Shown here: in pieces, positions 14,246 to 25,896 of the stretch
How the letters are laid out: each line of letters opens with the position of its first letter
Position numbering within the stretch: position 1 is the stretch's first letter
DNA from: Thermodesulfovibrionales bacterium
GTDB lineage: Bacteria; Nitrospirota; Thermodesulfovibrionia; Thermodesulfovibrionales; Dissulfurispiraceae
Length of the DNA: 26,612 bases
NCBI GenBank assembly: GCA_041653575.1
Contig: JBAZFD010000001.1
Location: 1-26,612, forward strand
Direction of reading: 5' to 3'
Made by a program: the position numbers and the translations under genes
The notes under the pieces: model-generated
The model's input: only the letters and a program-made list of their open reading frames with translations
Told to the model about the DNA's origin: nothing
Databases searched by the model: none

Positions 14246-15466
14246 TCAGACCAGGGAAATCGCCTTTTTCAGGCCGTCGGCAACGGCATCTATGAAGCCT
14301 TCGGTGCTTGCGTACTCGGTTATGCGGGGCTCGGCTATGAGCATCAGGTCCTTGGTCATCACGCCTGACTCAACGGTCTTTATCACCACGAGCTCAAGAA
14401 GCTTGGCGAACTTCACCACTTCAGGGGTGTTGTCCAGCTCTCCCCTCTTGGCAAGGGCGCCTGTCCAGGCGAAGATGGAGGCTATGGAGTTGGTAGAGGT
14501 GGGATTGCCCTTGAGGTGCTCGTAGTAGTGCCTCATCACCGTGCCGTGGGCGGCCTCGAACTCGTACTTCCCATCGGGGGAGACGAGGACAGAGGTCATG
14601 AGACCGAGGCTGCCGAAGCCCGTGGCCACCATGTCCGACATCACGTCGCCGTCGTAGTTCATGCAGGCCCACATCATCCCGCCCTCTGACTTGACCACCT
14701 GGGCCACGGCATCATCAATGAGGAGGTACCGGTACTGGATGCCCGCCTCCTTGAGCCTCTCCTTCTCCTTTTCCACCTCTTCGGCGAAGACGTCCCTGAA
14801 GAAGCCGTGGTACTGCTTGGAAATGGTGTCCTTCGCGCCGAACCAGAGGTCCACCTTCTCGCTGATGGCGTAGTTGATGCAGGACTGGGCAAAGCTCCTG
14901 ATGGACTTCTCTGTGTTGTGCATCCCCATGACAACCCCTGCGCCCTTGAACTCATGGATCTTCAGGACCTTTTTCTCACCGCCGCCCTGGGGGGTGAATA
15001 CGATCTCTGCCGTGCCCGGCCCGTCGATGATGCACTCAACGGCCTTGTAGATGTCACCGTAGGCGTGACGGCCTATGAGGATAGGCTTCTTCCAGAAACG
15101 GACAGCAGGAGGGATGTTCTTTATGATGATCGGCTTCCTGAAGACCGTGCCGTCAAGGATGGACCTGATCGTGCCGTTGGGGCTGGGCCACTGCTTCTTG
15201 AGATCGTACTCCTTCACCCTGGCGGCATTGGGTGTGATGGTGGCGCACTTCACGCCCACGCCGTGCTCCTTTATGGCGTTGGCCGCATCCACCGTAACCT
15301 GATCGTCGGTATCGTCCCTGTGCTTCATGCCCAGGTCATAGTATTTCAGGTCAACGTCAACAAAGGGGAGGATGAGCCTCTCCTTGATGAGCTGCCAGAT
15401 GATGCGGGTCATTTCGTCGCCGTCCATCTCCACGATGGGGTTCGTCACTCTGATTTTATCGGACAC
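14246..15466 (-). CDS. icd: NADP-dependent isocitrate dehydrogenase
   Basis: [57 protein letters not shown]. Start placed at GTG 15466 (SD GAGGAG); the ORF track starts at 15484. Confidence 0.97.
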
Positions 15467-15499
15467 GTCTCCTCCTCGATGCAAAAAAGTGTGAATGCT

Positions 15500-15529
15500 A
15501 ATTTAGCGTGAGGGGGAGTTTGTTGTCAA
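15500..15529 (-). promoter_or_regulatory. sigma70-type promoter for icd
   Basis: TTGACA (15529-15524) - 18 nt - TAAATT (15505-15500). Confidence 0.55.
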
Positions 15530-17380
15530 ATCAGGAAAGGAAAGGAGGGAGGGGCGGAGGCCCCTCCCTGAAGAAAGAAGAGAAAGATGCTGCTGTGCCG
15601 GCAGTTGCTGTTTCTGAAGCTGCCCTTTTTTGAAAATCATATCCCGAAGAAGGCCGGATACTTTGGCGGCAATGGCCTTTTTGTAGGGATTGTCCTGACC
15701 CGGAAGCGCGATAATCCAGTCGCTCAGTCTCACAACTTCGGGATCAGCTCCTTCCGTTATTCTCACGATGTAACATCCCTTGGAGGCGTACCTCTGCCCC
15801 TGCCCAAAGCTGAGACGGGGATAGGAAATAGCCGTATGAACCTGGTCCCGGAGGGAGTCCAGGGTGTCGAGGAGATAGTCCCTGTAAAGATAGGGTCCCA
15901 TAGACCGGATTGCCCCTGCCACAATCCGTACGGAGGAGAGGACCTGCATTTGCAGATCAGCCTCTCCCACGGGTATTCCTTTTGTCTTCAACCAGGCTGT
16001 CATGACGTCTTTGCTTTGGCCGTATTCCTTCGGGAGCTTGCGGGGATAGGTGGCATAGGTGAATCCCCGGATTGTATCGGGCAATGAAGACAGCTTCATG
16101 TTCATAAGGGTTGAAGAGACAAAGACGCAGAAAGGCCTTTCAGGGATCTCGCCCAGAATCTTCATGGAAGGGATATCCTGCTCATCCAGCCAGAGGACAA
16201 AAACGCCGCCCTTGTATTGCCTTGCCAGTTTCTTCCAGAATGTCTCTGACAGCTTCTCCTCCTTTGCCAGGACAACGGTTTTGAGGAGCTCCGTTGGTCC
16301 ATCCCAGCTCTCCCGCAGCCCCCTGTCAAGGAGAGCGCCTTTTTCTCTGTCACGGTAAACCTGGACTACAGGCGTGCCGCCGGTTTTGACAGCCCTGTTG
16401 AGATACCTCGCCACGGTAACGCCCTCCTGGTAGAGCCCCCTGGAGGAATAGAGGGTATACCAGTCTTTTTCTGCGATGACAGGCAGGTCGGTAAGGGGAA
16501 AGAGGCTGGGAATCCGCTGCTCCTCGCTGAACCTGTGAATCGGCTCCCAGTCACCCCTGACTCTCCCGCTCACAATGGCAAAGACAGGCTCCTTTTTGTA
16601 ATACTCCTCAAGCTGGCCCTTCCATGTCTCGCGGGCCCCTTTCAGCTCCCAGAGGGAGAGCGTCACTTTCCCCCCATAGAGCCTGTTGCTCTCCGGGTCT
16701 AAAAACGACCCTTTCCATTTCTTTGGTCCGGGAGGCGCGTTGATGAGGTCAAAATAGCCTTGCAGGGTTTTCACCAGTGACGCCTTTTCCCCGGGGCTCA
16801 CGCCATCGCTGACCACTGTGGCGAACCGGAGGGTCTGTTCCGTTGCTCCCGGTGACAGCTCTGCTGAAAGGTTTCTGAGGTAATAGGAAAGGATCTCCAT
16901 ATCCCTGTCAGAGAGTGGATACATAGGCATGGCCAGGTTCAGCTCTCTCCCTGTAGGATCAATCCCCTCCCTCAGGGCCATTGCAAGCCTTTCGTCAGTA
17001 TAAGCGGGACGCGGGTGGCCGGTCTTCAGCCCTTTAAGAAGCGCCTCCCCAAAGGGCTGGACAGACTCCACCCCTGTCTCCACGGGGCTGAAGAGCCTTG
17101 GCCCGGTAATCCTTGGTGAAAAAAGAGACCCCTCCAAAGACCCCAGCCCGCTCCTCAGGTGACAGCTTCCACAGGTGAACATCTTTCCGTCCACCGTCAC
17201 CCCACCTCCAACAACCGCCTGCATGGGCTCTCCTGAGGAAAGAATCCCCTCGCGGTACATTCTTTCTCCCAAACGCAGTGCCTCATCATCAGTCAGTCCT
17301 GCTATCATAACGCACTCACCGAAGGAGAGGGTGCCAAGGAGAAAAACAAAAGCGGAGAGAAGTAAAACTATTTTTCCCAT
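15503..17380 (-). CDS. Exported monoheme cytochrome c fused to a periplasmic-binding-protein-like domain
   Basis: Signal peptide; single CxxCH (CGSCH); candidate distal Met (AMPMY); long C-terminal alpha/beta region resembling type I (branched-chain amino acid-like) substrate-binding folds (inference). Confidence 0.8.
   Translation of the reverse strand: MGKIVLLLSAFVFLLGTLSFGECVMIAGLTDDEALRLGERMYREGILSSGEPMQAVVGGGVTVDGKMFTCGSCHLRSGLGSLEGSLFSPRITGPRLFSPVETGVESVQPFGEALLKGLKTGHPRPAYTDERLAMALREGIDPTGRELNLAMPMYPLSDRDMEILSYYLRNLSAELSPGATEQTLRFATVVSDGVSPGEKASLVKTLQGYFDLINAPPGPKKWKGSFLDPESNRLYGGKVTLSLWELKGARETWKGQLEEYYKKEPVFAIVSGRVRGDWEPIHRFSEEQRIPSLFPLTDLPVIAEKDWYTLYSSRGLYQEGVTVARYLNRAVKTGGTPVVQVYRDREKGALLDRGLRESWDGPTELLKTVVLAKEEKLSETFWKKLARQYKGGVFVLWLDEQDIPSMKILGEIPERPFCVFVSSTLMNMKLSSLPDTIRGFTYATYPRKLPKEYGQSKDVMTAWLKTKGIPVGEADLQMQVLSSVRIVAGAIRSMGPYLYRDYLLDTLDSLRDQVHTAISYPRLSFGQGQRYASKGCYIVRITEGADPEVVRLSDWIIALPGQDNPYKKAIAAKVSGLLRDMIFKKGQLQKQQLPAQQHLSLLSSGRGLRPSLLSFPDLTTNSPSR
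15546..15569 (-). terminator. Terminator-like hairpin at the end of the MCO-SCO-cytochrome unit
   Basis: 10-bp stem AGGGAGGGGC-ggag-GCCCCTCCCT followed on the minus strand by a pyrimidine run (CCTTTCCTTTCC); lies inside the 3' end of the 625-aa ORF. Confidence 0.6.
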
Positions 17381-17955
17381 ACCTTATGATATTCCTCCTT
17401 CAATTCCTGAGTACTCATAAAACCAAACAGCCTTATCCAGTAGCCGTCATCAGGAGAGCGCAGAAGGGTGAGGGGGTAGTGGGACATTTTGTTTGGCACA
17501 TCGGTATAGAAGGCCTTCATAACAGCCTTGATCTCATCGCGCGATCCGGTGAGAAATTCCCACCCAGGCTTTGCATTGTACCTTTTCAGATATTCTTTCA
17601 TGACCTCAGGAGTATCATGATCAGGATCAATGGTTATGGAGACAAGCCGTATGTTTTTCAGATCCTGCCCCATCCTGTTCTGGAGGTTTGCATATCCTGC
17701 CGAAAGGATAGGACAGATAGTTGTGCATGTGGCATAAATGAACTGGAGGAATACAGGCTTTTCAGAGATGAGGATCTCTCTGAGCCGTACCCTTTGCCCA
17801 TTCTGGTTTGTCAGCATCAGATCCGGAACCTGATAGCTCGCAACGGTCCTTTCATACTTTTTCTTGTCCGCACCATGGGAGTCGCGGCTCCACAAAAGAA
17901 GCGATGGGACCAGCATGAGTATAATGACAAGGTTGATGAGACGCATCCTTCTCAT
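17368..17955 (-). CDS. SCO1/SenC family copper chaperone
   Basis: LTNQNG, FIYATCTTICP (CxxxC), VSITIDPDHDTP, WEFLTG, distal His (SHYP); N-terminal signal or anchor; SD AAGGAGG before ATG 17955. Confidence 0.92.
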   Translation of the reverse strand: MRRMRLINLVIILMLVPSLLLWSRDSHGADKKKYERTVASYQVPDLMLTNQNGQRVRLREILISEKPVFLQFIYATCTTICPILSAGYANLQNRMGQDLKNIRLVSITIDPDHDTPEVMKEYLKRYNAKPGWEFLTGSRDEIKAVMKAFYTDVPNKMSHYPLTLLRSPDDGYWIRLFGFMSTQELKEEYHKVWEK

Positions 17956-18023
17956 GAAGCCCTCCTTACTGTCCATTTAATCTATCTTTGGGTTCAAGGG
18001 CAGAAACGACGCTTACAAAATAG

Positions 18024-18049
18024 GCGGGGAGGGATCTCTCCCTCCCCGC
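18024..18049 (-). terminator. Hairpin after the multicopper oxidase gene (terminator or mRNA-stabilising stem)
   Basis: 11-bp stem GCGGGGAGGGA-tctc-TCCCTCCCCGC followed by CTATTTT on the minus strand. Confidence 0.65.
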
Positions 18050-18064
18050 TGAAGCCTTTACGAC

Positions 18065-21000
18065 TCAGGGCAGTGTCGTAGCTGAAACCACATTACTGAA
18101 GGCAGAATTCCCGTCAGCATTAAATGCCCTGACACGGAACCAGTAGGTCGTGTTCGGTGTCAGGGTGCCGACGGTGAAGGTCGTTACGTCTGCTCCAACT
18201 TTAAACGACCTCACTACTGTCGTGAAACCGGAATCCCTCGCCCTCTGAATCCTGAAGCCGGTCTCGTTAGTAGAATTGTCCGTCCAGCTGATGTCAACAG
18301 AGGTGCTGGTCACAGTGCCTACGGTCAGATTACCCGGCTTCTGAGGCATCACGCCCGGAGTTGTGGCAGTGGCGGTATTTGACCATGCAGAGGCGCCTGC
18401 GACGTTAACGGCCTGCACCCTGTAGTAGTATGTCGTCTTGGGCGCAACCGTCGTATCAGTGAATGCCGTGACATTCACGCCAACCGTAAAGGTCGTCAGT
18501 CCCGCCGCGAAGCCTGCGTCAGTCGCCCTCTGAATCGTGAAGCCTGACTCGCTGGTGGCGTTGTCAGTCCAGGTCAGGCGCACTCGCGGCGGGTTCGAAC
18601 TGAGGGCAGAGGGAGTGGCAACCAGTCCCGTGGGCGCTGCCGGAATTGCAATTGTGATTGTGACTGTTGCCGTTCTTGACCATACGGAATCAGCAGACTT
18701 GGTCGGAAATCCGACAGACGGAGCCGCGTACTGATAGGTGTCTCCCACAAGGTTAGAGGCCCGCACCCTGTAGTAATAGGTCGAGCCGGCCGTTACGCTT
18801 CCGTCCCTAAAGGTAGTTGCATTGGCTGCAACCGTAACCGTTCTGTCAATCACCGCAAAACCGGCATCCTGCGACCTTTCAATGGTGAAGACTGTCTCGT
18901 TCAGAGAGTTGTCCTTCCAGGTCAACCTTATGTTCCCCGCAGCGGTCATGGCGGCGGAAAACCCGGAAGGGGCCTTCGGCGCTACCGCAAACACCAAGGA
19001 GTGCATCATGTCCATCTCTTCGTGGCTCAGGATGTGGCAGTGCCAGACGTATTCCCAGCCGAAGTTGACGTAATGATTTGTAACGGTCACCCCTTTTGCC
19101 GCCGGGTCCTTGAAGCCTCCAGGCGGTGTCGCTAAGACAGCGCCCTCAGGCATGGTAGGGTCTATCAGGCGGATGCTGTTGGGAATGTCGAAGGGTTGGG
19201 TAGGAGCAACCGGCCTCATCGCCACGATTGTATCCTCCAGCGGATTGACACGGACGGTTTCCTTCCAGCCCAGTTCGTTGGGATCGGGAGGCATGAGGAA
19301 ACCATCCCAGGCCACCCGGTTAATCAACTGCACGTTGAACAGATGGAAGTGAATTGGATGGGTGTCCACACCGTTGTGTGTGATCTTCCAGATCTGGGTC
19401 CCATCCGAAAGCGTCCCGATGGGGGTCATGGAATCCTGCATGACATCAACGGGCGGGCTGGAGTACCCGTAAAGCATGAAATTCTGGTTTACGTTGTTGG
19501 TGCCCGGCAGCTCGAGTCCCATCATTCCACTCATCCGTCCATACCCGGTGTCGTACGATTCGCCCATCTCGTCCTGGATCGCCTTTGGCTGGAAGGGAAT
19601 CGTCACCGGCGTTGCCGAACCGATTGGAGTAAAGGTTTTGGAGGTATCATAAATCTGTGCATATGCTCTATAATCGGCGGGGAAAGTCCCATTGTAGGCT
19701 GAATTATAACCGGCCTGGGGGATAATGACCGGGTCCTGTGAAACCTCCAGGACGCCTCTCTTATCAACTGTTTTCGCAAATGCCGCCCTCAGGGCATTCA
19801 GATCATAGGGGGTGGCAGCAGTTGAAGCAGCCACCCTGATCTGCATGATCGTGCGGGTGTTGGGACCATAGCCCGGCTGCGTTGTGGGAGCGCCGCCCGT
19901 GTCGGTCTGGTCGGGATTGCCCATGTAGTAGTCATAGCGCGGGTCGAGGGCCGGGAAGGCTGCTGGAGCGTCGTTGTAGACAATGATGGTTTTGCCTGCA
20001 TACTGCGAGAAGTCAACGATTACGTCCGCCCGCTCCGCAGGTGCGATGAGCAGCGAATGGTCCGTGACATTCCCGAAATTGAAGGCTGTTGCGTTCCTGT
20101 TCCAGTTGACCGGCTGGTTGGGAAGCACAACAGGAGCCGGCAGGAAACCGCCTTCTGTTCCGATCTGTACCCACGACGGGCCTGCTGTAGCAGGATCCGG
20201 CACACCGCCTGCCCTGCCGTCAGTTGGCCACTTTGCCGGGAAGCCGGGCGTCTGTACAGCCGGGACCATCTTGACCTCTGTATCAGTCCTGCCATCGGAG
20301 GTTGTGACAGCAGAGTCAGCCACGTACATCTGCAGGTTGAAAAACCGGTCATTTGCGGCGTTCAGTACCCGGAAGCGGTAAGCCTTGGGCTCCACATCCA
20401 GATAGGGGTAAACAGCGCCGTTCACGACAGGGGTGTCCATGAATGCCTCCATACCCATGGAAGGATCGGGCATGTCGGGCCTCATCGGCGGCTCACACCA
20501 CGTTACAGAAGGATCACAGTTGGGGTCGTAGTGTTCGTTCGGGACCGGCCCGTGGGCGATACCTGTGGTGGGCGGCCAGAACCATGGACCATACATCCAA
20601 CGGCCAAAGGCGTTTGCCCCGGTAATGTCATAGGGGTTCTGTGCCGGCATATAGACAGAAGGCAGCCAGAGGTCACCGGTCATCGCCATTCCCGGCATGG
20701 TCCCCCATCTCCAGGTGGGATCCTGGGCGGCTATGGTGTTGCTGTCCACGAAGGTCTTGTCCTGGATGATCAGCGGAATACCGGTACCGGGGAGAACACT
20801 GACTCCTGTGGGGTTGACGCCGGTCATATTAGTACCATTGATCAGGTCTTGCTCCACATTATCCGTCAGCAGGTACCCTGCTGCCTCTCCCGCATAGACA
20901 TTAAGGCGGGTAATGCCATAGGCATGGTCGTGGTAGAACATCAGCCTGGCGCTCTGCTGATTGTTATAGTAGAAAGTCAGCGACCCGTCGCCGGGATCAT

Positions 21001-22141
21001 TCGTCGCTCCCGCTGTTCCAGCCGGGACCGGCGCGTGAGTCACCGGATCAAACCACATGTCAGGGACGTATTGGACACTGACGCCCTTGGGATAGGAAGT
21101 GGTTTCTCCAGCCGGGGTGATCCACTGGTGGGGCGTACCGTCGCTGATCCAGGGAACCATGCCGCCGTGCAAATGAAGGGTGGCGCGATTCTGGGTGTAC
21201 ATGCTTCCATCAGGCGCCATCCCGGCTCCCATGACGGAGGTGTCCACCGGGAGGAAAAGGTCTCCGCCGGTACCGGTGGAGAGCTTGTTGGTGAACTTGA
21301 TGCGCACCGGGGTGTCCCGCTTGGCGACGATCAGGGGGCCCAGATAGTGAAACTGGCTTACGGTCGCATCTGTTGTATTGGTCTGCCTGTAGCCCCGCAG
21401 TGTGGTCGCAGGCAGATCGGAATGCAGCTGCTCGGAGTACTGGCCGAGCTCGATCTCGTAATAGTCTGATCCCGGATAGGTCGTCGTATCCGGGATCGCC
21501 ACAGGAATATATTTTCCAAGGGGGGTGCTTGCTCCGGCAGCCGTAAGACCAGGCAGTGAGTCAACGAATTTCCGGATGCCGCCAGAGAGAGCCCCACCTA
21601 TTGAGGCTGAGGCAATAGCGCCTGTTCCGGCGGTATCAGAGATAGCAACAACGGGAGCGGTATACCCGCTGCCGCCGGCATCAACAGTGATGCCGGTAAT
21701 GACACCACCTGCCACTGTTGCGGTAGCAGTAGCACCCGAGCCTGTGCCGTAAACATCAGAGATAGTGACAACCGGAGCGGTGTATCCGCTGCCCCCGGCG
21801 TCAACAGTGATGCTTGCTACCGCGCCCGTAGGCATCGGGCTGTTTGCGTAGTTGGCATAGGGACCGAAATAATGGGGTATCGGGCTGGTAGCGGGCATGG
21901 CCATGCCAAAGGATACGATATTACCTGAACCTGTCTTGGTTGCAGCTGCCCCAGGTTGAAAGCCGTGGGCTGCGGCATTATCTGCTGCGGCCTGCCGTTG
22001 AGCAGGCGTTATCCTCTTCATCTGTTCGGGGGATGAGGTATTGCCGGTAGCTGCTTGCGTGCTGGCAAAATCGAATCCCAGGAAAAGAGCCGCTACTGTC
22101 ACTATAAAACTCGTGAAGATCGAAAATTTGCGCCTCTTCAT
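18065..22141 (-). CDS. Large exported multicopper oxidase with three C-terminal fibronectin type III domains (Geobacter OmpB / Leptothrix MofA-like architecture)
   Basis: All four MCO copper motifs: [31 protein letters not shown] (T1 Cys, His and axial Met intact). Signal peptide with RRKF; three FN3 repeats (LTWxDNS/A...F.I.R...YYYRV.A.N); SD GGGAGGAG. Confidence 0.93.
21635..21812. repeat. Two ~58-bp direct repeats (120-bp period) encoding [18 protein letters not shown]
   Basis: 21635-21692 and 21755-21812 differ mainly at synonymous positions. Confidence 0.9.
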
Positions 22142-22335: not shown

Positions 22336-22351
22336 AGCAAATAAAGCACCA
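22336..22351 (-). promoter_or_regulatory. Putative sigma54 (-24/-12) promoter of the MCO operon
   Basis: TGGTGCTTTATTTGCT: TGG and TTGCT with exact GG-N10-GC spacing; the CAC after GG is not conserved. Confidence 0.6.
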
Positions 22352-22578: not shown

Positions 22579-22953
22579 TCAGGCTGCGCCAATGAATCGT
22601 TCAACCACCTCCAGCACTTCCCTTATGTCAAGAGGCTTTGCGATGTAGGCGTCGCAGCCTGACTCAGCCATTAGCCTCTCACGGTCTCCCTTCATTGCCG
22701 ATGAGGTGATAATAATGACAGGCACCGACTTTGTCGGTTCTTCAGACTTCATTATCCGTGTCGCCTCGATGCCGTCCATCACAGGCATACGGATATCCGT
22801 GAGAACGAGATCCGGGGGCTCTTTCCGCGCGATCTCGACGGCATCCCTTCCGTCGACTGCCTCTTTCACCTCGTACCCCTTCTTCTCCAGGATAATTTTT
22901 AAAAGCTTTCGGTTCTTGTCGTTATCGTCGACCACCAGGACCAGTTTACCCAT
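22579..22953 (-). CDS. Single-domain (CheY/DivK-like) response regulator
   Basis: VLVVDD, DLVLTDIRMPVMDG (phospho-Asp), IITSSAMKGD, YIAKP; no output domain. Confidence 0.95.
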   Translation of the reverse strand: MGKLVLVVDDNDKNRKLLKIILEKKGYEVKEAVDGRDAVEIARKEPPDLVLTDIRMPVMDGIEATRIMKSEEPTKSVPVIIITSSAMKGDRERLMAESGCDAYIAKPLDIREVLEVVERFIGAA

Positions 22954-25840
22954 TCCCTTTTTCCTCCTTCAGTATGGGGAGCACAAAGACAAATCTGCTG
23001 CCCTTCCCCAATTCACTTTCAACCCAGATCCTTCCTCTGTGGAGCTCAACCATTCTTTTACTCAGCGAAAGTCCAAGCCCTGTGCCTGCATATTTTCTCG
23101 TAAGAGAGCTTTCCAGCTGCTGAAAGGGCTGGAACAGTTTTTTGAGGTCATCCTTCGACATCCCGATCCCGGTATCGGCAACGGCAACCTCAATCCCAGC
23201 CTCTCCGTCAGAGTTCACCTTCCGGGCCGTTACGGTGATCTTTCCGCCGTCAGGGGTGAACTTGACGGCATTACCCACGAGGGTGAAGAGAATCTGCCTG
23301 AGCCTCCTCTCATCAACAACCACCCTCTCCACCTCATCATCCACCACTGCCGTCAGCAGGAAGCCGTGTTTTAACGCCTTTTCCCTGAAAAGAGCGATAC
23401 TGCCGGTTACAACCTCCCTGAGAGAGACCTCCCGCAGATCCAGCTCAACCTTCCCTGACTCTATCTTGGCCAGGTCGAGGAGATCATTAATAAGGCTCAG
23501 GAGGTGTTTTCCGCTATCATAGATATCGGAGAGATACTCCAACTGCTCGGGGCTGACAGGGCCTGCCATGTCGGAGCGCATCAGGTCTGAAAAGCCTATG
23601 ATTGAATTGAGGGGAGTCCTCAGCTCATGGGACATATTGGCCAGGAATTCACTCTTGGCGCGGCTGGAGGCCTCAGCCACCAGGGAGGCATCGCGCAGTT
23701 TCTCCTCCATTGCCTTCCGCTCAGTGATATCCCGCATAATAGTGGCAATGAAATCCACCTCGCCCTCTGCTGTCTTGTAAATAACAATGACCTGCGAGAC
23801 AGGGACCTCCCTGCCCTGCCGGTCCCTGATCGCTGTTTCATGATGCCATGTGCCCTGGCTGAGGGCAGTGGGTATTCCCACGCTCCAGATGGCCGGGAAT
23901 GCCCATTCAGGGTAGAAGCCGGAGATCTCAAGGCTGTTGATCGCCTCATCATCAGGGATACCCATCATCGCTCTGCCGGCCTTGTTGAGATAGATCACGC
24001 GGCCATCCCTGTTGCTGATGGCCACGAAGTCGGAGGTTGCGTCAAGGAAGGCGCTCAGCTTCAGCCTCATCTCCTCAGCCTGCTTCCTGCGGGTGATATC
24101 CATGAGGGTAACAATGGCTGCGCCGGAGCTTGATCTCCTCTCAGGAGCGAGCCGCCTCTCAGGCAGGAGCATGGTGAGAAGGACGTAGACAGGCTCTCCC
24201 TGCAAGGTCTTCAGGGTCATTTCCGTCTTGTAAAGCGGCTTCCCCTCTTCCAGAGCCACCAGCTCATCAATGAAAAGCCGCTTTGACTCCTCAGTGGAGA
24301 AAATTGCAGCAAGAGAGGAGCGGACCTCAGCCTTGTCCCTGGCGCCGAACATGGCTACCGCTTCATTATTGATATCGAGAATCCGCACCCTGGCCGACAG
24401 CTTCCCGGCTGACTCAGGGTTCTCATCAAAGAAACGGGCAAAGTCCTTCACCCCTCCATGGCGCAGCTCCTTCATTTCCGAAAGCACTTCAGACCAATCC
24501 TCCTCCCAGATGGAGACCGGCGCAGACTCGAAGATATTCCGGTAGCGCCGCTCACTGTCTCTCAGCGCATCCTCCAGGTGTTTTCTCTCTGTTATGTCGC
24601 TGCAGGCCCCGACCATCCTGTAGGGTCTGCCTTCTCCGTCAAAAAGGGCTGTGCCTCGGTCCAGCCAGAAACAGAGACTCCCGTCCTTCCTCACTACCCG
24701 GTATTCTTCACGGTAAGGCCTGTGCATCCTGAGATGCTCCTCAAGACTCGCAATGATCCTCTTATAGTCCTCGGGATGAACTATCAGGTCCCAGGCCTTG
24801 AGGGTCCGGGGAAACTCCTCAGGCGCATACCCGAGATAGGCATCAACGGCGCCGTACCAATCCAGGGATCCCTGCGCAATGTCCCATTCCCATATAAAAT
24901 CGGTTGTGCTCTCGGCTGCTACCCTGAAACGCTCCTCGGAGCGGTGAAGATTACCGAGCGCTGTCTTCCGCTCACTGTCGATGCGGTCCAGGATCCGGAC
25001 AGTGATAAAGGTGATGAGGAGAAAGGCGCTGGCAATGACGATGCTGTGCAGCACCGGTTCAAAGACACTGCTGTAAAGCCCCCAGTACCCACCCAGTTCT
25101 ATCAGGAGGTCAAGCAGGGGTGGGATGAAAATGACGACAAAGATAAAGCGCCGAGCCAGGAGTCCTCCGAGGGTATCGCTGGTAAAGACCTTCATCACCC
25201 CCTGCGTGGGACGGGCAAAGAGTATCCCCATGGAGACAAGGATGAAGGCCATGACCGTATTCACCGCTATACCGGTATAGGTGACAACACGATAGGGTTG
25301 CGGTACGCCGTAGATATACCCGCTCAGGAGCGTGAGTGAATAAAGCCCCACAAGAATAATCAGAAATTGCGAGGGCCTTTTCCCGGTCCCGGTCTGCCGG
25401 TCCAGGAGGATAAGGGCAATGCCTGAAAGGAACAGATTCAGCGCTGATTTGGGCGACATCCGTCCGGGATGGGAAGTGCCCACCGTACCAAGCGCCTCTT
25501 TGAAGAGGAGCTGATCAATGCCGAAATCCGTTTTCAGTATGTATTCAATGAGGGTGAGGAGGCCGATGAACGAGACCATAAAGGAAAAGACCCAGGCAAT
25601 GCGGCGGGTTCCCGGTGTAAGCCGCCTCTCCTGAAGAAGCCATATCGAAATACCGAGGAGGACGAAGCAGACTGCGGTATTCGCCTTCATTGACACCAGG
25701 TGGGGATAGACACTCTTCAATGCCGCGATATCAAAAACCCATCCTGTAAGAGCAAGAAGGCCGCCGGCTGTCACGGCAATCCCCATTCCTTCGGAAAGGG
25801 CGGTAAACCGGGCTGCCAGCTGATTTATAACACTGCTCAT
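22946..25840 (-). CDS. Membrane-bound multi-PAS sensor histidine kinase
   Basis: Polytopic N-terminal domain, three PAS/PAC-like segments (VHPED..., DITERK), H-box FLANMSHELRTPLNSIIGFS, N-box QILFTLVGNAVKFT, G-boxes DTGIG and GTGLGL. Start placed at ATG 25840 (SD GGAGG); the ORF track starts at 25858. Confidence 0.95.
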   Translation of the reverse strand: MSSVINQLAARFTALSEGMGIAVTAGGLLALTGWVFDIAALKSVYPHLVSMKANTAVCFVLLGISIWLLQERRLTPGTRRIAWVFSFMVSFIGLLTLIEYILKTDFGIDQLLFKEALGTVGTSHPGRMSPKSALNLFLSGIALILLDRQTGTGKRPSQFLIILVGLYSLTLLSGYIYGVPQPYRVVTYTGIAVNTVMAFILVSMGILFARPTQGVMKVFTSDTLGGLLARRFIFVVIFIPPLLDLLIELGGYWGLYSSVFEPVLHSIVIASAFLLITFITVRILDRIDSERKTALGNLHRSEERFRVAAESTTDFIWEWDIAQGSLDWYGAVDAYLGYAPEEFPRTLKAWDLIVHPEDYKRIIASLEEHLRMHRPYREEYRVVRKDGSLCFWLDRGTALFDGEGRPYRMVGACSDITERKHLEDALRDSERRYRNIFESAPVSIWEEDWSEVLSEMKELRHGGVKDFARFFDENPESAGKLSARVRILDINNEAVAMFGARDKAEVRSSLAAIFSTEESKRLFIDELVALEEGKPLYKTEMTLKTLQGEPVYVLLTMLLPERRLAPERRSSSGAAIVTLMDITRRKQAEEMRLKLSAFLDATSDFVAISNRDGRVIYLNKAGRAMMGIPDDEAINSLEISGFYPEWAFPAIWSVGIPTALSQGTWHHETAIRDRQGREVPVSQVIVIYKTAEGEVDFIATIMRDITERKAMEEKLRDASLVAEASSRAKSEFLANMSHELRTPLNSIIGFSDLMRSDMAGPVSPEQLEYLSDIYDSGKHLLSLINDLLDLAKIESGKVELDLREVSLREVVTGSIALFREKALKHGFLLTAVVDDEVERVVVDERRLRQILFTLVGNAVKFTPDGGKITVTARKVNSDGEAGIEVAVADTGIGMSKDDLKKLFQPFQQLESSLTRKYAGTGLGLSLSKRMVELHRGRIWVESELGKGSRFVFVLPILKEEKGNG

Positions 25841-25896
25841 CCTGCCTCCTTCGATCACCCGCAGAAAGCCTCCCGCGCGGCCAGAGGCATAAGCAA

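Follow-up and report, generated by a model that had tools for sequence, protein, structure and literature searches.

The window analysed here is a 26,612-nucleotide (nt) stretch of DNA (contig JBAZFD010000001.1, positions 1 to 26,612, assembly GCA_041653575.1) from a groundwater Nitrospirota genome that is 78% complete and distributed over 390 contigs. Its minus strand carries three co-oriented open reading frames (ORFs) encoding a giant multicopper oxidase (MCO), a Sco1/SenC-type copper chaperone (Sco) and a fusion of a cytochrome c with a binding-protein domain. The fusion protein is called MofC here; this assignment rests on shared architecture and on homologues of the Geobacter clade with 39-45% identity, and the MofC of Leptothrix discophora and GSU1397 of Geobacter sulfurreducens were likened to it by description. 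The original prediction, made from the letters alone, had proposed a trio of genes for exported proteins, and all three ORFs were confirmed. The features of the locus are, in the direction of transcription:

22336..22351, minus strand: sigma-54-type -24/-12 box TGGTGC-N5-TTGCT, read from the letters, about 195 nt upstream of the MCO start.
18065..22141, minus strand: giant MCO of 1358 amino acids (Pfam Cu-oxidase_2 and fn3, CotA alignment).
18024..18049, minus strand: GC-rich hairpin with an 11-bp stem and a weak T tail (-28.6 kcal/mol, z -4.5), within the 88 nt that separate the MCO stop from the Sco start.
17368..17976, minus strand: Sco1/SenC copper chaperone with an N-terminal membrane anchor (PF02630).
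15503..17380, minus strand: MofC-like protein with a signal peptide, a class-I monohaem cytochrome c (C70xxCH, M151) and a type-I periplasmic-binding-protein fold (residues ~172-560).
15546..15569, minus strand: GC-rich hairpin at the operon end (-22.1 kcal/mol, z -5.1), inside the non-conserved MofC tail.

Judged from its sequence, the MCO is an exported CotA-like four-copper enzyme with FN3 surface modules. The N-terminal signal peptide has a twin-arginine-like KRRKFS, and several close homologues have textbook twin-arginine translocation (Tat) motifs, e.g. RRVFLK or RREFLK. Two N-terminal 13-residue repeats with GGSGYT and three C-terminal FN3 modules, the latter matched by Pfam fn3, could be read in the translation. 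Its 1358 residues, signal and three FN3 modules give the protein the build of giant secreted MCOs of the OmpB/MofA type, which exceed 1000 amino acids, are exported and bear FN3 or similar surface domains. The best solved relative was CotA (E 1.8e-38, six aligned stretches), which defined a three-cupredoxin core at residues ~190-1040, i.e. ~850 residues including large insertions; the Pfam Cu-oxidase_2 score was 30.5 bits (cut-off 20.4). The copper motifs HLHGG (323), HDH (404), HPIHFH (928-933) and a 13-residue motif (1034-1046) holding H1034-C1035-H1036, H1040 and M1045 all lined up with the copper ligands of CotA, in agreement with the intact four-copper site predicted originally.

More than 7000 MCO homologues were found. 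Among the top 120, with 59-77% identity, the hosts are Chloroflexi, Actinobacteria, Aminicenantes, Clostridia and archaea (Methanoperedens, Methanoregula, Thermoplasmata). Over distant bacterial phyla and archaea the core is 59-79% identical, whereas the C-terminal surface domains differ from protein to protein (FN3, PKD, Big, cohesin-like), a pattern suggestive of extensive horizontal transfer, mostly in anaerobic lineages. On a Methanoperedens contig (L104, 8001-14808) the homologous MCO gene is followed by two hypothetical genes and a gene for an FKBP-type prolyl isomerase, recalling MofB of the Leptothrix mofABC genes.

The Sco protein matched PF02630 with 76.4 bits (cut-off 22.8). C84-TTI-C88 and H166, as well as K163 and M164, are invariant or nearly so across 33 homologues, and the hydrophobic N-terminus corresponds to a membrane anchor. 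Sco is thus assigned by its motifs as a membrane-anchored CxxxC/His copper chaperone, the CxxxC/His site having been noted originally. Translation probably starts at the second methionine (M8, 17955), because the strong Shine-Dalgarno sequence AAGGAGG sits 6 nt before it.

MofC has more than 1100 homologues with 41-49% identity. In 70 aligned homologues C70-GS-C73-H74 and M151-P152 are invariant, as are 44 other positions. Pfam gave no match with the MofC of the window itself; among the 70 homologues PF13458 (Peripla_BP_6) matched 67 and PF00034 (Cytochrom_C) 41. A profile search of the PDB detected no solved relative by sequence. In the AlphaFold model (predicted local distance difference test score, pLDDT, 86; predicted template modelling score, pTM, 0.82) a small helical haem domain is packed against a two-lobed domain, and residues ~172-560 of the latter matched LivJ/LivK-type binding proteins in Foldseek (E 1e-13, 10-15% identity). 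The invariant CxxCH and distal Met, together with this fold match, bear out the earlier proposal of a monohaem cytochrome fused to a ligand-binding-like domain: by sequence and fold, the third protein is a monohaem cytochrome c of the periplasm that carries a clamshell domain of LivJ type.

The MofC ORF continues for 68 codons (15503-15706) beyond the end of every homologue, the conserved part stopping near 15707. The extra tail runs through the terminator-like hairpin and appeared as a low-confidence helix in the model; it looks like the result of a lost stop codon or a lineage-specific addition. A second, partial MofC copy in the same genome (L002, contig C368, 3-893; 61% identical over the part on the contig, its 5' part lying off the contig end) finishes at the canonical '...SDWVIH', like the homologues. 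Degeneration of the window MofC, considered on account of its long branch, the missing Pfam match and the read-through tail, was rejected: all 49 invariant residues are kept. At 102 highly conserved columns this protein deviates six times (homologues: median 2, maximum 7).

When the hairpins were folded against shuffled sequences, both were more stable than every shuffle. The original prediction had placed hairpins after the MCO gene and at the end of the operon; both are real and strong, but the end hairpin lies inside the non-conserved tail of MofC. A promoter-like site for icd was detected beyond it, at 15529-15500. The hairpin in the MCO-Sco gap could be a terminator or an attenuator, and a promoter scan of the 88-nt gap gave nothing convincing. 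The excess of MCO transcript suggested earlier may exist; just as well, though, the hairpin could terminate an MCO gene that was acquired separately.

MofC relatives were searched for in one genome per species and found in 289 stretches, of which the best 79 loci were analysed. These span Nitrospirota, Geobacteraceae/Desulfuromonadales, Desulfobulbaceae, Holophagae/Acidobacteriota, Gammaproteobacteria and others, and include the cultured carriers Geomonas silvestris, Citrifermentans bremense, Desulfopila and Desulforhopalus. Sco stands directly beside MofC in 69/79 loci, and the two genes mostly overlap by 4 nt. A giant MCO was present within 10 kb of MofC in 12 loci; counting MCO genes of all kinds, which belong to at least four unrelated sequence families, the number is 37. 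At 29-31 loci the same distance contained a module consisting of hyp103, an FtsX/MacB permease, an ATP-binding cassette (ABC) ATPase and a 336-residue membrane protein, often with NosL. Altogether 55/79 loci had an MCO or the NosL/ABC module, and most of the remaining 24 are short contigs. Sco and MofC are a self-standing pair and the conserved core of these loci, usually without a giant MCO and often beside other MCO families or the NosL/ABC module. The original prediction that the system is dedicated to this MCO was not upheld by this distribution. The trio as such does recur in Nitrospirota and Geobacter, in two gene orders.

Among 61 relatives of the source genome MofC is present in eight, from six genera. 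All eight have Cu-oxidase_2 genes, vs 11/53 of the MofC-negative relatives (counts over related, non-independent genomes), and only four of the eight contain a COX2/CuA domain; MCO-type matches across the relatives number 37 in 61 genomes, well below one per genome on average. The copper-loading role ascribed to Sco at the outset fits this phyletic pattern. A Sco dedicated to the CuA site of cytochrome oxidase was considered and rejected, four fully complete MofC/Sco-positive relatives being without any COX2 domain. Rather than a new system, Sco-MofC appears to be a helper pair of wide distribution for oxidases of this type.

Several other arrangements were noticed around the pair. In Geomonas silvestris Red330 and Citrifermentans bremense R1 (L033, 4700-11600; L080, 3000-9750) genes for an MCO (~485 amino acids), a second MCO (~730 amino acids, with a Y_Y_Y domain), Sco and MofC follow each other on one strand. 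A secreted subtilase (Peptidase_S8 with Ig-like domains) is encoded within 10 kb of Sco-MofC in 11/79 loci (L026, L032, L037, L043, L048, L067, L069, L082, L085, L087, L094). The polytopic membrane protein of the ABC module (331-336 amino acids; in the own genome L108, contig C64, 5264-6259, minus strand; family alignment A4) has invariant M87-C88, C168-C169 and H250-C251 pairs. It had no Pfam match and no PDB fold match, and its only hits were uncharacterised clusters of the AlphaFold database. Its gene always follows NosL, a small ORF, the FtsX/MacB permease and the ABC ATPase, often stands before Sco-MofC, and in the own genome is directly followed by tatA/B and tatC. The NosL/ABC/336-residue set looks like an uncharacterised copper-handling module. 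The recurring ABC module at MofC loci is of this FtsX/MacB type with NosL, not of the Liv type; no LivHMGF-type permease or ATPase genes were found in the window or in the 79 MofC loci.

The descent of the trio was examined with trees of MofC and of the MCO. The trio occurs in the order MCO-Sco-MofC in G019, L078 and L095 and as Sco-MofC-MCO in G037, G060, L075 and L074. In the MofC tree the giant-MCO-linked proteins form one clade (support 100; 13/16 rows so linked), and the window MofC lies outside it on a long branch. In the MCO tree the triad enzymes of Geobacter and Nitrospirota form their own clade (SH-aLRT, an approximate likelihood-ratio test, 100). The window MCO, 47-54% identical to these, falls in a sister, cosmopolitan clade, where it is nested among Chloroflexi-type sequences with up to 79% identity. 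Membership of the OmpB clade was assessed here with triads from Nitrospirota and from Geobacter metagenome-assembled genome (MAG) loci, OmpB of G. sulfurreducens and MofA of L. discophora being likened by description. In 6/6 genomic contexts examined in the cosmopolitan clade Sco and MofC were missing, for which reason the triad of the window was probably assembled independently, a foreign-type oxidase coming to adjoin a Sco-MofC pair. On the MCO tree the linkage of MCO, Sco and MofC changes at least three times, and two relatives, G037 and G060, also join a cosmopolitan-clade MCO to Sco-MofC. Phylogeny and synteny thus gave a mixed answer for the original prediction: the trio recurs, but the window MCO belongs to another clade than the OmpB-type triad enzymes and its closest relatives are without Sco or MofC nearby. 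The recurrence of such pairings with several oxidase families speaks for a functional link and not for mere inheritance. In three related triads (L012, 5302-9961; L038, 3371-6993; L091, 2169-8608) two or three overlapping ORFs take the place of the giant MCO, which could be due to frameshifts, assembly errors or decaying genes.

A complex of MofC (residues 26-560) with the soluble domain of Sco (38-202) was predicted with the haem riding along, in three runs and with three controls. The median score of the three runs was 0.64, and the best of the three controls reached 0.00. In calibration a score of 0.64 was reached by 58/80 solved complexes and 2/110 mismatched pairs, a rough guide only, because the calibration set had neither user-supplied alignments nor a riding ligand. 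The runs shared at least 93% of the contacts, and the pLDDT of the partner was at least 85. On the MofC side the predicted interface consists of the CxxCH segment (67-75), residues 149-150, neighbours of the Met ligand, and a C-terminal loop with the invariant sequence FGxGQRYxxKG (522-535); on the Sco side it comprises 83-90 (with C84xxxC88), D117-P118 and 161-168 including K163-M164-x-H166. The haem edge is thereby set against the copper site of Sco. The interface contains more conserved Sco residues than chance would give (9 vs 4.2 expected, p 0.009). No related complex was found among solved structures. The prediction supports binding of Sco to MofC in this orientation, and its geometry fits a haem that exchanges electrons with the copper/thiol centre of Sco. 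According to the original prediction the fusion protein couples ligand binding to electron transfer. Because the haem lies next to the Sco copper site in the model, a redox partnership of MofC with Sco is favoured over ligand-gated electron flow to the MCO.

The reading preferred here, to which a probability of about 0.55 is given, is that Sco and MofC are a redox-assisted copper-supply pair serving the exported oxidase. It takes the predicted geometry together with the NosL/ABC neighbours, which include the 336-residue protein with its invariant MC, CC and HHC motifs. Also in its favour are the tight pairing of Sco with MofC, the recurrence of MCO genes near the pair, the phyletic pattern and the signs of independent assembly of the triad. 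From the literature, the joint rise of Slit_1812, Slit_1813 and three cupredoxin proteins on magnetite (10.1101/2024.09.20.614158), the Sco genes of the Pseudomonas mnxG and mcoA operons and the loss of Mn oxidation in cytochrome c maturation mutants (PMC13689576) agree with it. Sco and MofC would form a complex in which the haem edge faces the copper/thiol site of Sco, and an electron from the haem would keep the Sco cysteines or the bound copper reduced. In that state Sco could pass Cu(I) on to the copper-free oxidase while the latter is still in the periplasm, prior to its secretion or display. The pair may be a general helper module for secreted MCOs, recruited here by a horizontally gained oxidase.

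Several findings weigh against this reading. The Sco residues enriched at the interface are conserved in all Sco proteins, and conserved MofC residues were not significantly enriched there (6 vs 3.4 expected, p 0.11). The complex is a model, calibrated on a set without a riding haem or user-supplied alignments. The copper-supply scheme does not account for the large clamshell domain of MofC. Close MCO homologues manage without adjacent Sco and MofC in all six contexts, a strong hairpin lies between the MCO and Sco-MofC genes so that their co-transcription is presumed only, and COX1 and COX2 of the same genome are possible clients of Sco. A bolder form of the proposal is offered tentatively, at somewhat less than even odds. 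Sco-MofC would be a dedicated haem-driven metallochaperone of two proteins for exported MCOs, in which the cytochrome c docks on the Sco copper site and gives the electron for Cu(I) loading, and the clamshell captures copper or the client. Oxidase families of at least four unrelated kinds (in Nitrospirota, Desulfobacterota, Acidobacteriota and Proteobacteria) would each have recruited the pair on their own.

The main rival is the older hypothesis for MofC, in which the protein links the periplasmic electron pool to the surface MCO while metals are oxidised or reduced, the clamshell senses or binds the substrate and Sco only loads copper. A role as electron partner has been proposed for MofC/GSU1397 in the literature (PMC5566968), proteins of the Sideroxydans MCO cluster are induced on a solid Fe(II) mineral, Mn oxidation in Pseudomonas needs cytochrome c maturation, and MofC-positive genomes always have MCO genes. 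Yet the overlapping genes and the 69/79 loci tie MofC to Sco far more tightly than to any MCO family, and MofC is also found with NosL/ABC copper modules at loci that have no MCO close by. In the predicted complex the haem edge lies against the Sco copper site, and in a diderm cell a secreted or surface-bound MCO would lie beyond the reach of a periplasmic cytochrome. Electron transport by MofC to the oxidase is thus regarded as the less probable explanation, with perhaps half the weight of copper supply by the Sco-MofC pair.

The three genes might also be neighbours by chance, a horizontally acquired MCO having landed by a pre-existing Sco-MofC pair that serves other copper enzymes, with the hairpin in the gap as the MCO's own terminator. 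The strength of this hairpin, the up to 79% identity of the MCO to Chloroflexi-type homologues that have no Sco-MofC neighbours, the loss of synteny with relatives beyond icd, and the presence of another Cu-oxidase_2 gene (contig C12) and COX genes in the genome would all agree with it. Accidental adjacency was nevertheless judged improbable: MCO genes stand near Sco-MofC in 37/79 loci, in both gene orders and far above chance, G037 and G060 repeat the pairing with a cosmopolitan-clade MCO, and the 88-nt gap yielded no convincing promoter. Least probable is a generic CueO-type cuprous oxidase that detoxifies copper independently of Sco and the cytochrome. MCO relatives share Tat-type signals with CueO, and there is a weak similarity to the NCBIfam CueO model, but at 55 bits it remained far under the equivalog cut-off of 525. 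The protein has no methionine-rich insert and there are no cop or cus genes nearby; its size, its FN3 modules and its nearest solved relative, CotA, point elsewhere, as does the recurrent link with Sco-MofC. Candidate activities of the oxidase are the oxidation of Mn(II), Fe(II) or organic substrates and the removal of trace O2.

The remaining features of the window are:

Left half of the window: dcw cell-wall cluster, bioF, gpsA and an HD-domain gene.
14246-15484, minus strand: icd.
Between the MCO and response regulator genes: AT-richer intergenic region of 437 nt, containing the sigma-54-type box.
22579-22953, minus strand: CheY-only response regulator, 124 amino acids.
22946-25858, minus strand: PAS histidine kinase, 970 amino acids.

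Comparison with the contexts of family-level relatives (Nitrospirota genomes, including G024, contig C8 = JBFMCP010000008.1, and G001) showed that synteny stops at icd. The kinase and the CheY-only regulator lie directly upstream of the trio and their own hairpin ends the pair (22579..25858, minus strand); they are possible regulators of the trio. Co-transfer of the kinase with the MCO was rejected, as the similarity to kinases next to MCO homologues, or to those of relatives, did not go beyond that of generic domains. Sigma-54 activators occur near Sco-MofC in 15/79 loci. Two close MCO homologues adjoin a PAS kinase and a sigma-54 activator, the activator directly upstream (L103, 3062-7286; L105, 2896-7755), and the window has the PAS kinase and the CheY-only regulator only. 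The absence of cytochrome oxidase genes, noted in the original prediction, holds for the window, but COX1 (contig C345) and a COX2 domain (contig C290) are found elsewhere in the genome. Two tandem NosL genes lie on the short contig C387 (L102, 758-1558); these and the MofC copy on C368 probably belong to a second copper locus that is fragmented in the assembly.

The locus is one more example of its kind and no new class; its value lies in the testable mechanism for Sco-MofC. Giant surface MCOs have repeatedly been proposed as agents of Mn and Fe redox chemistry in microbes. If the proposed mechanism is true, the vague annotation of MofC as an 'electron transfer' protein would be replaced by a specific, testable maturation mechanism, the Sco-MofC system, in the bolder form of the proposal, would rank with NosL/NosDFY for N2O reductase or Sco/PCuAC for cytochrome oxidase, and heterologous production of active oxidases would be aided. 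Geomonas silvestris Red330 and Citrifermentans bremense R1 are tractable carriers of the pair.

The cluster type is already known from Geobacter, Leptothrix and iron oxidisers, and by its gene content the locus is a member of the MofA/OmpB-MofC-Sco type. In G. sulfurreducens ompB (GSU1394) is accompanied by a MofC homologue (GSU1397) and a Sco1/SenC gene (GSU1398), and similar clusters were described in Gallionellaceae, Ferriphaselus, Leptothrix and Sideroxydans, their functions being noted there as untested (He et al. 2017, PMC5566968). The likeness to OmpB and MofA drawn in the original prediction was therefore right in kind. The ompB cluster has the same three parts (giant secreted FN3 MCO, cytochrome c with a periplasmic binding domain, Sco1/SenC), and the Geobacter MAG loci L075 and L095 show the same trio as the window. 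The window differs from these ompB-type triads in the sister-clade position of its MCO and in a MofC outside the OmpB-linked clade. The mofA-mofB-mofC genes of L. discophora, as summarised in PMC5566968 from Brouwers et al. 2000, resemble it in having a large MCO linked to Mn(II) oxidation and a downstream, cytochrome c-containing MofC; compared with that summary, the window is without a MofB-type peptidyl-prolyl isomerase and has a Sco gene instead.

In Sideroxydans lithotrophicus ES-1 the cytochrome Slit_1812, the Sco protein Slit_1813 and three cupredoxin proteins (Slit_1812-1818) were more abundant on magnetite than on Fe(II)-citrate (10.1101/2024.09.20.614158). This cluster, too, combines a cytochrome and Sco1/SenC with extracellular cupredoxin/MCO proteins, co-regulated at the protein level, but its oxidases, small MCOs and a giant adhesin-like cupredoxin protein, are unlike the CotA-like giant MCO of the window. 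A Slit-like layout (Sco, MofC, small ORFs, a giant protein and two small MCOs) was present in 14-16/79 loci. The mnxG and mcoA operons of Pseudomonas hold Sco1/SenC genes and are under sigma-54/IHF-type regulation, and cytochrome c maturation mutants lose Mn oxidation (PMC13689576); these hosts differ in being aerobes with other MCO families.

Among single proteins, the CotA laccase of Bacillus subtilis (1gsk) has the same three-cupredoxin core, with all four copper motifs aligned. It consists of 513 residues, whereas the window protein adds large insertions to the core as well as the N-terminal repeats, the three FN3 modules and an export signal. The closest parallel to the predicted Sco-MofC interface is a Pseudomonas protein in which a c-type haem domain is fused to a Sco domain; Banci et al. 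in 2011 (J Biol Inorg Chem 16:391) reportedly proposed that the haem domain reduces the copper/thiol centre of Sco, with cytochrome oxidase as the client. The same geometry appeared in the predicted complex, but here the two partners are separate proteins, MofC has an extra binding-protein domain, and the clients are apparently MCOs.

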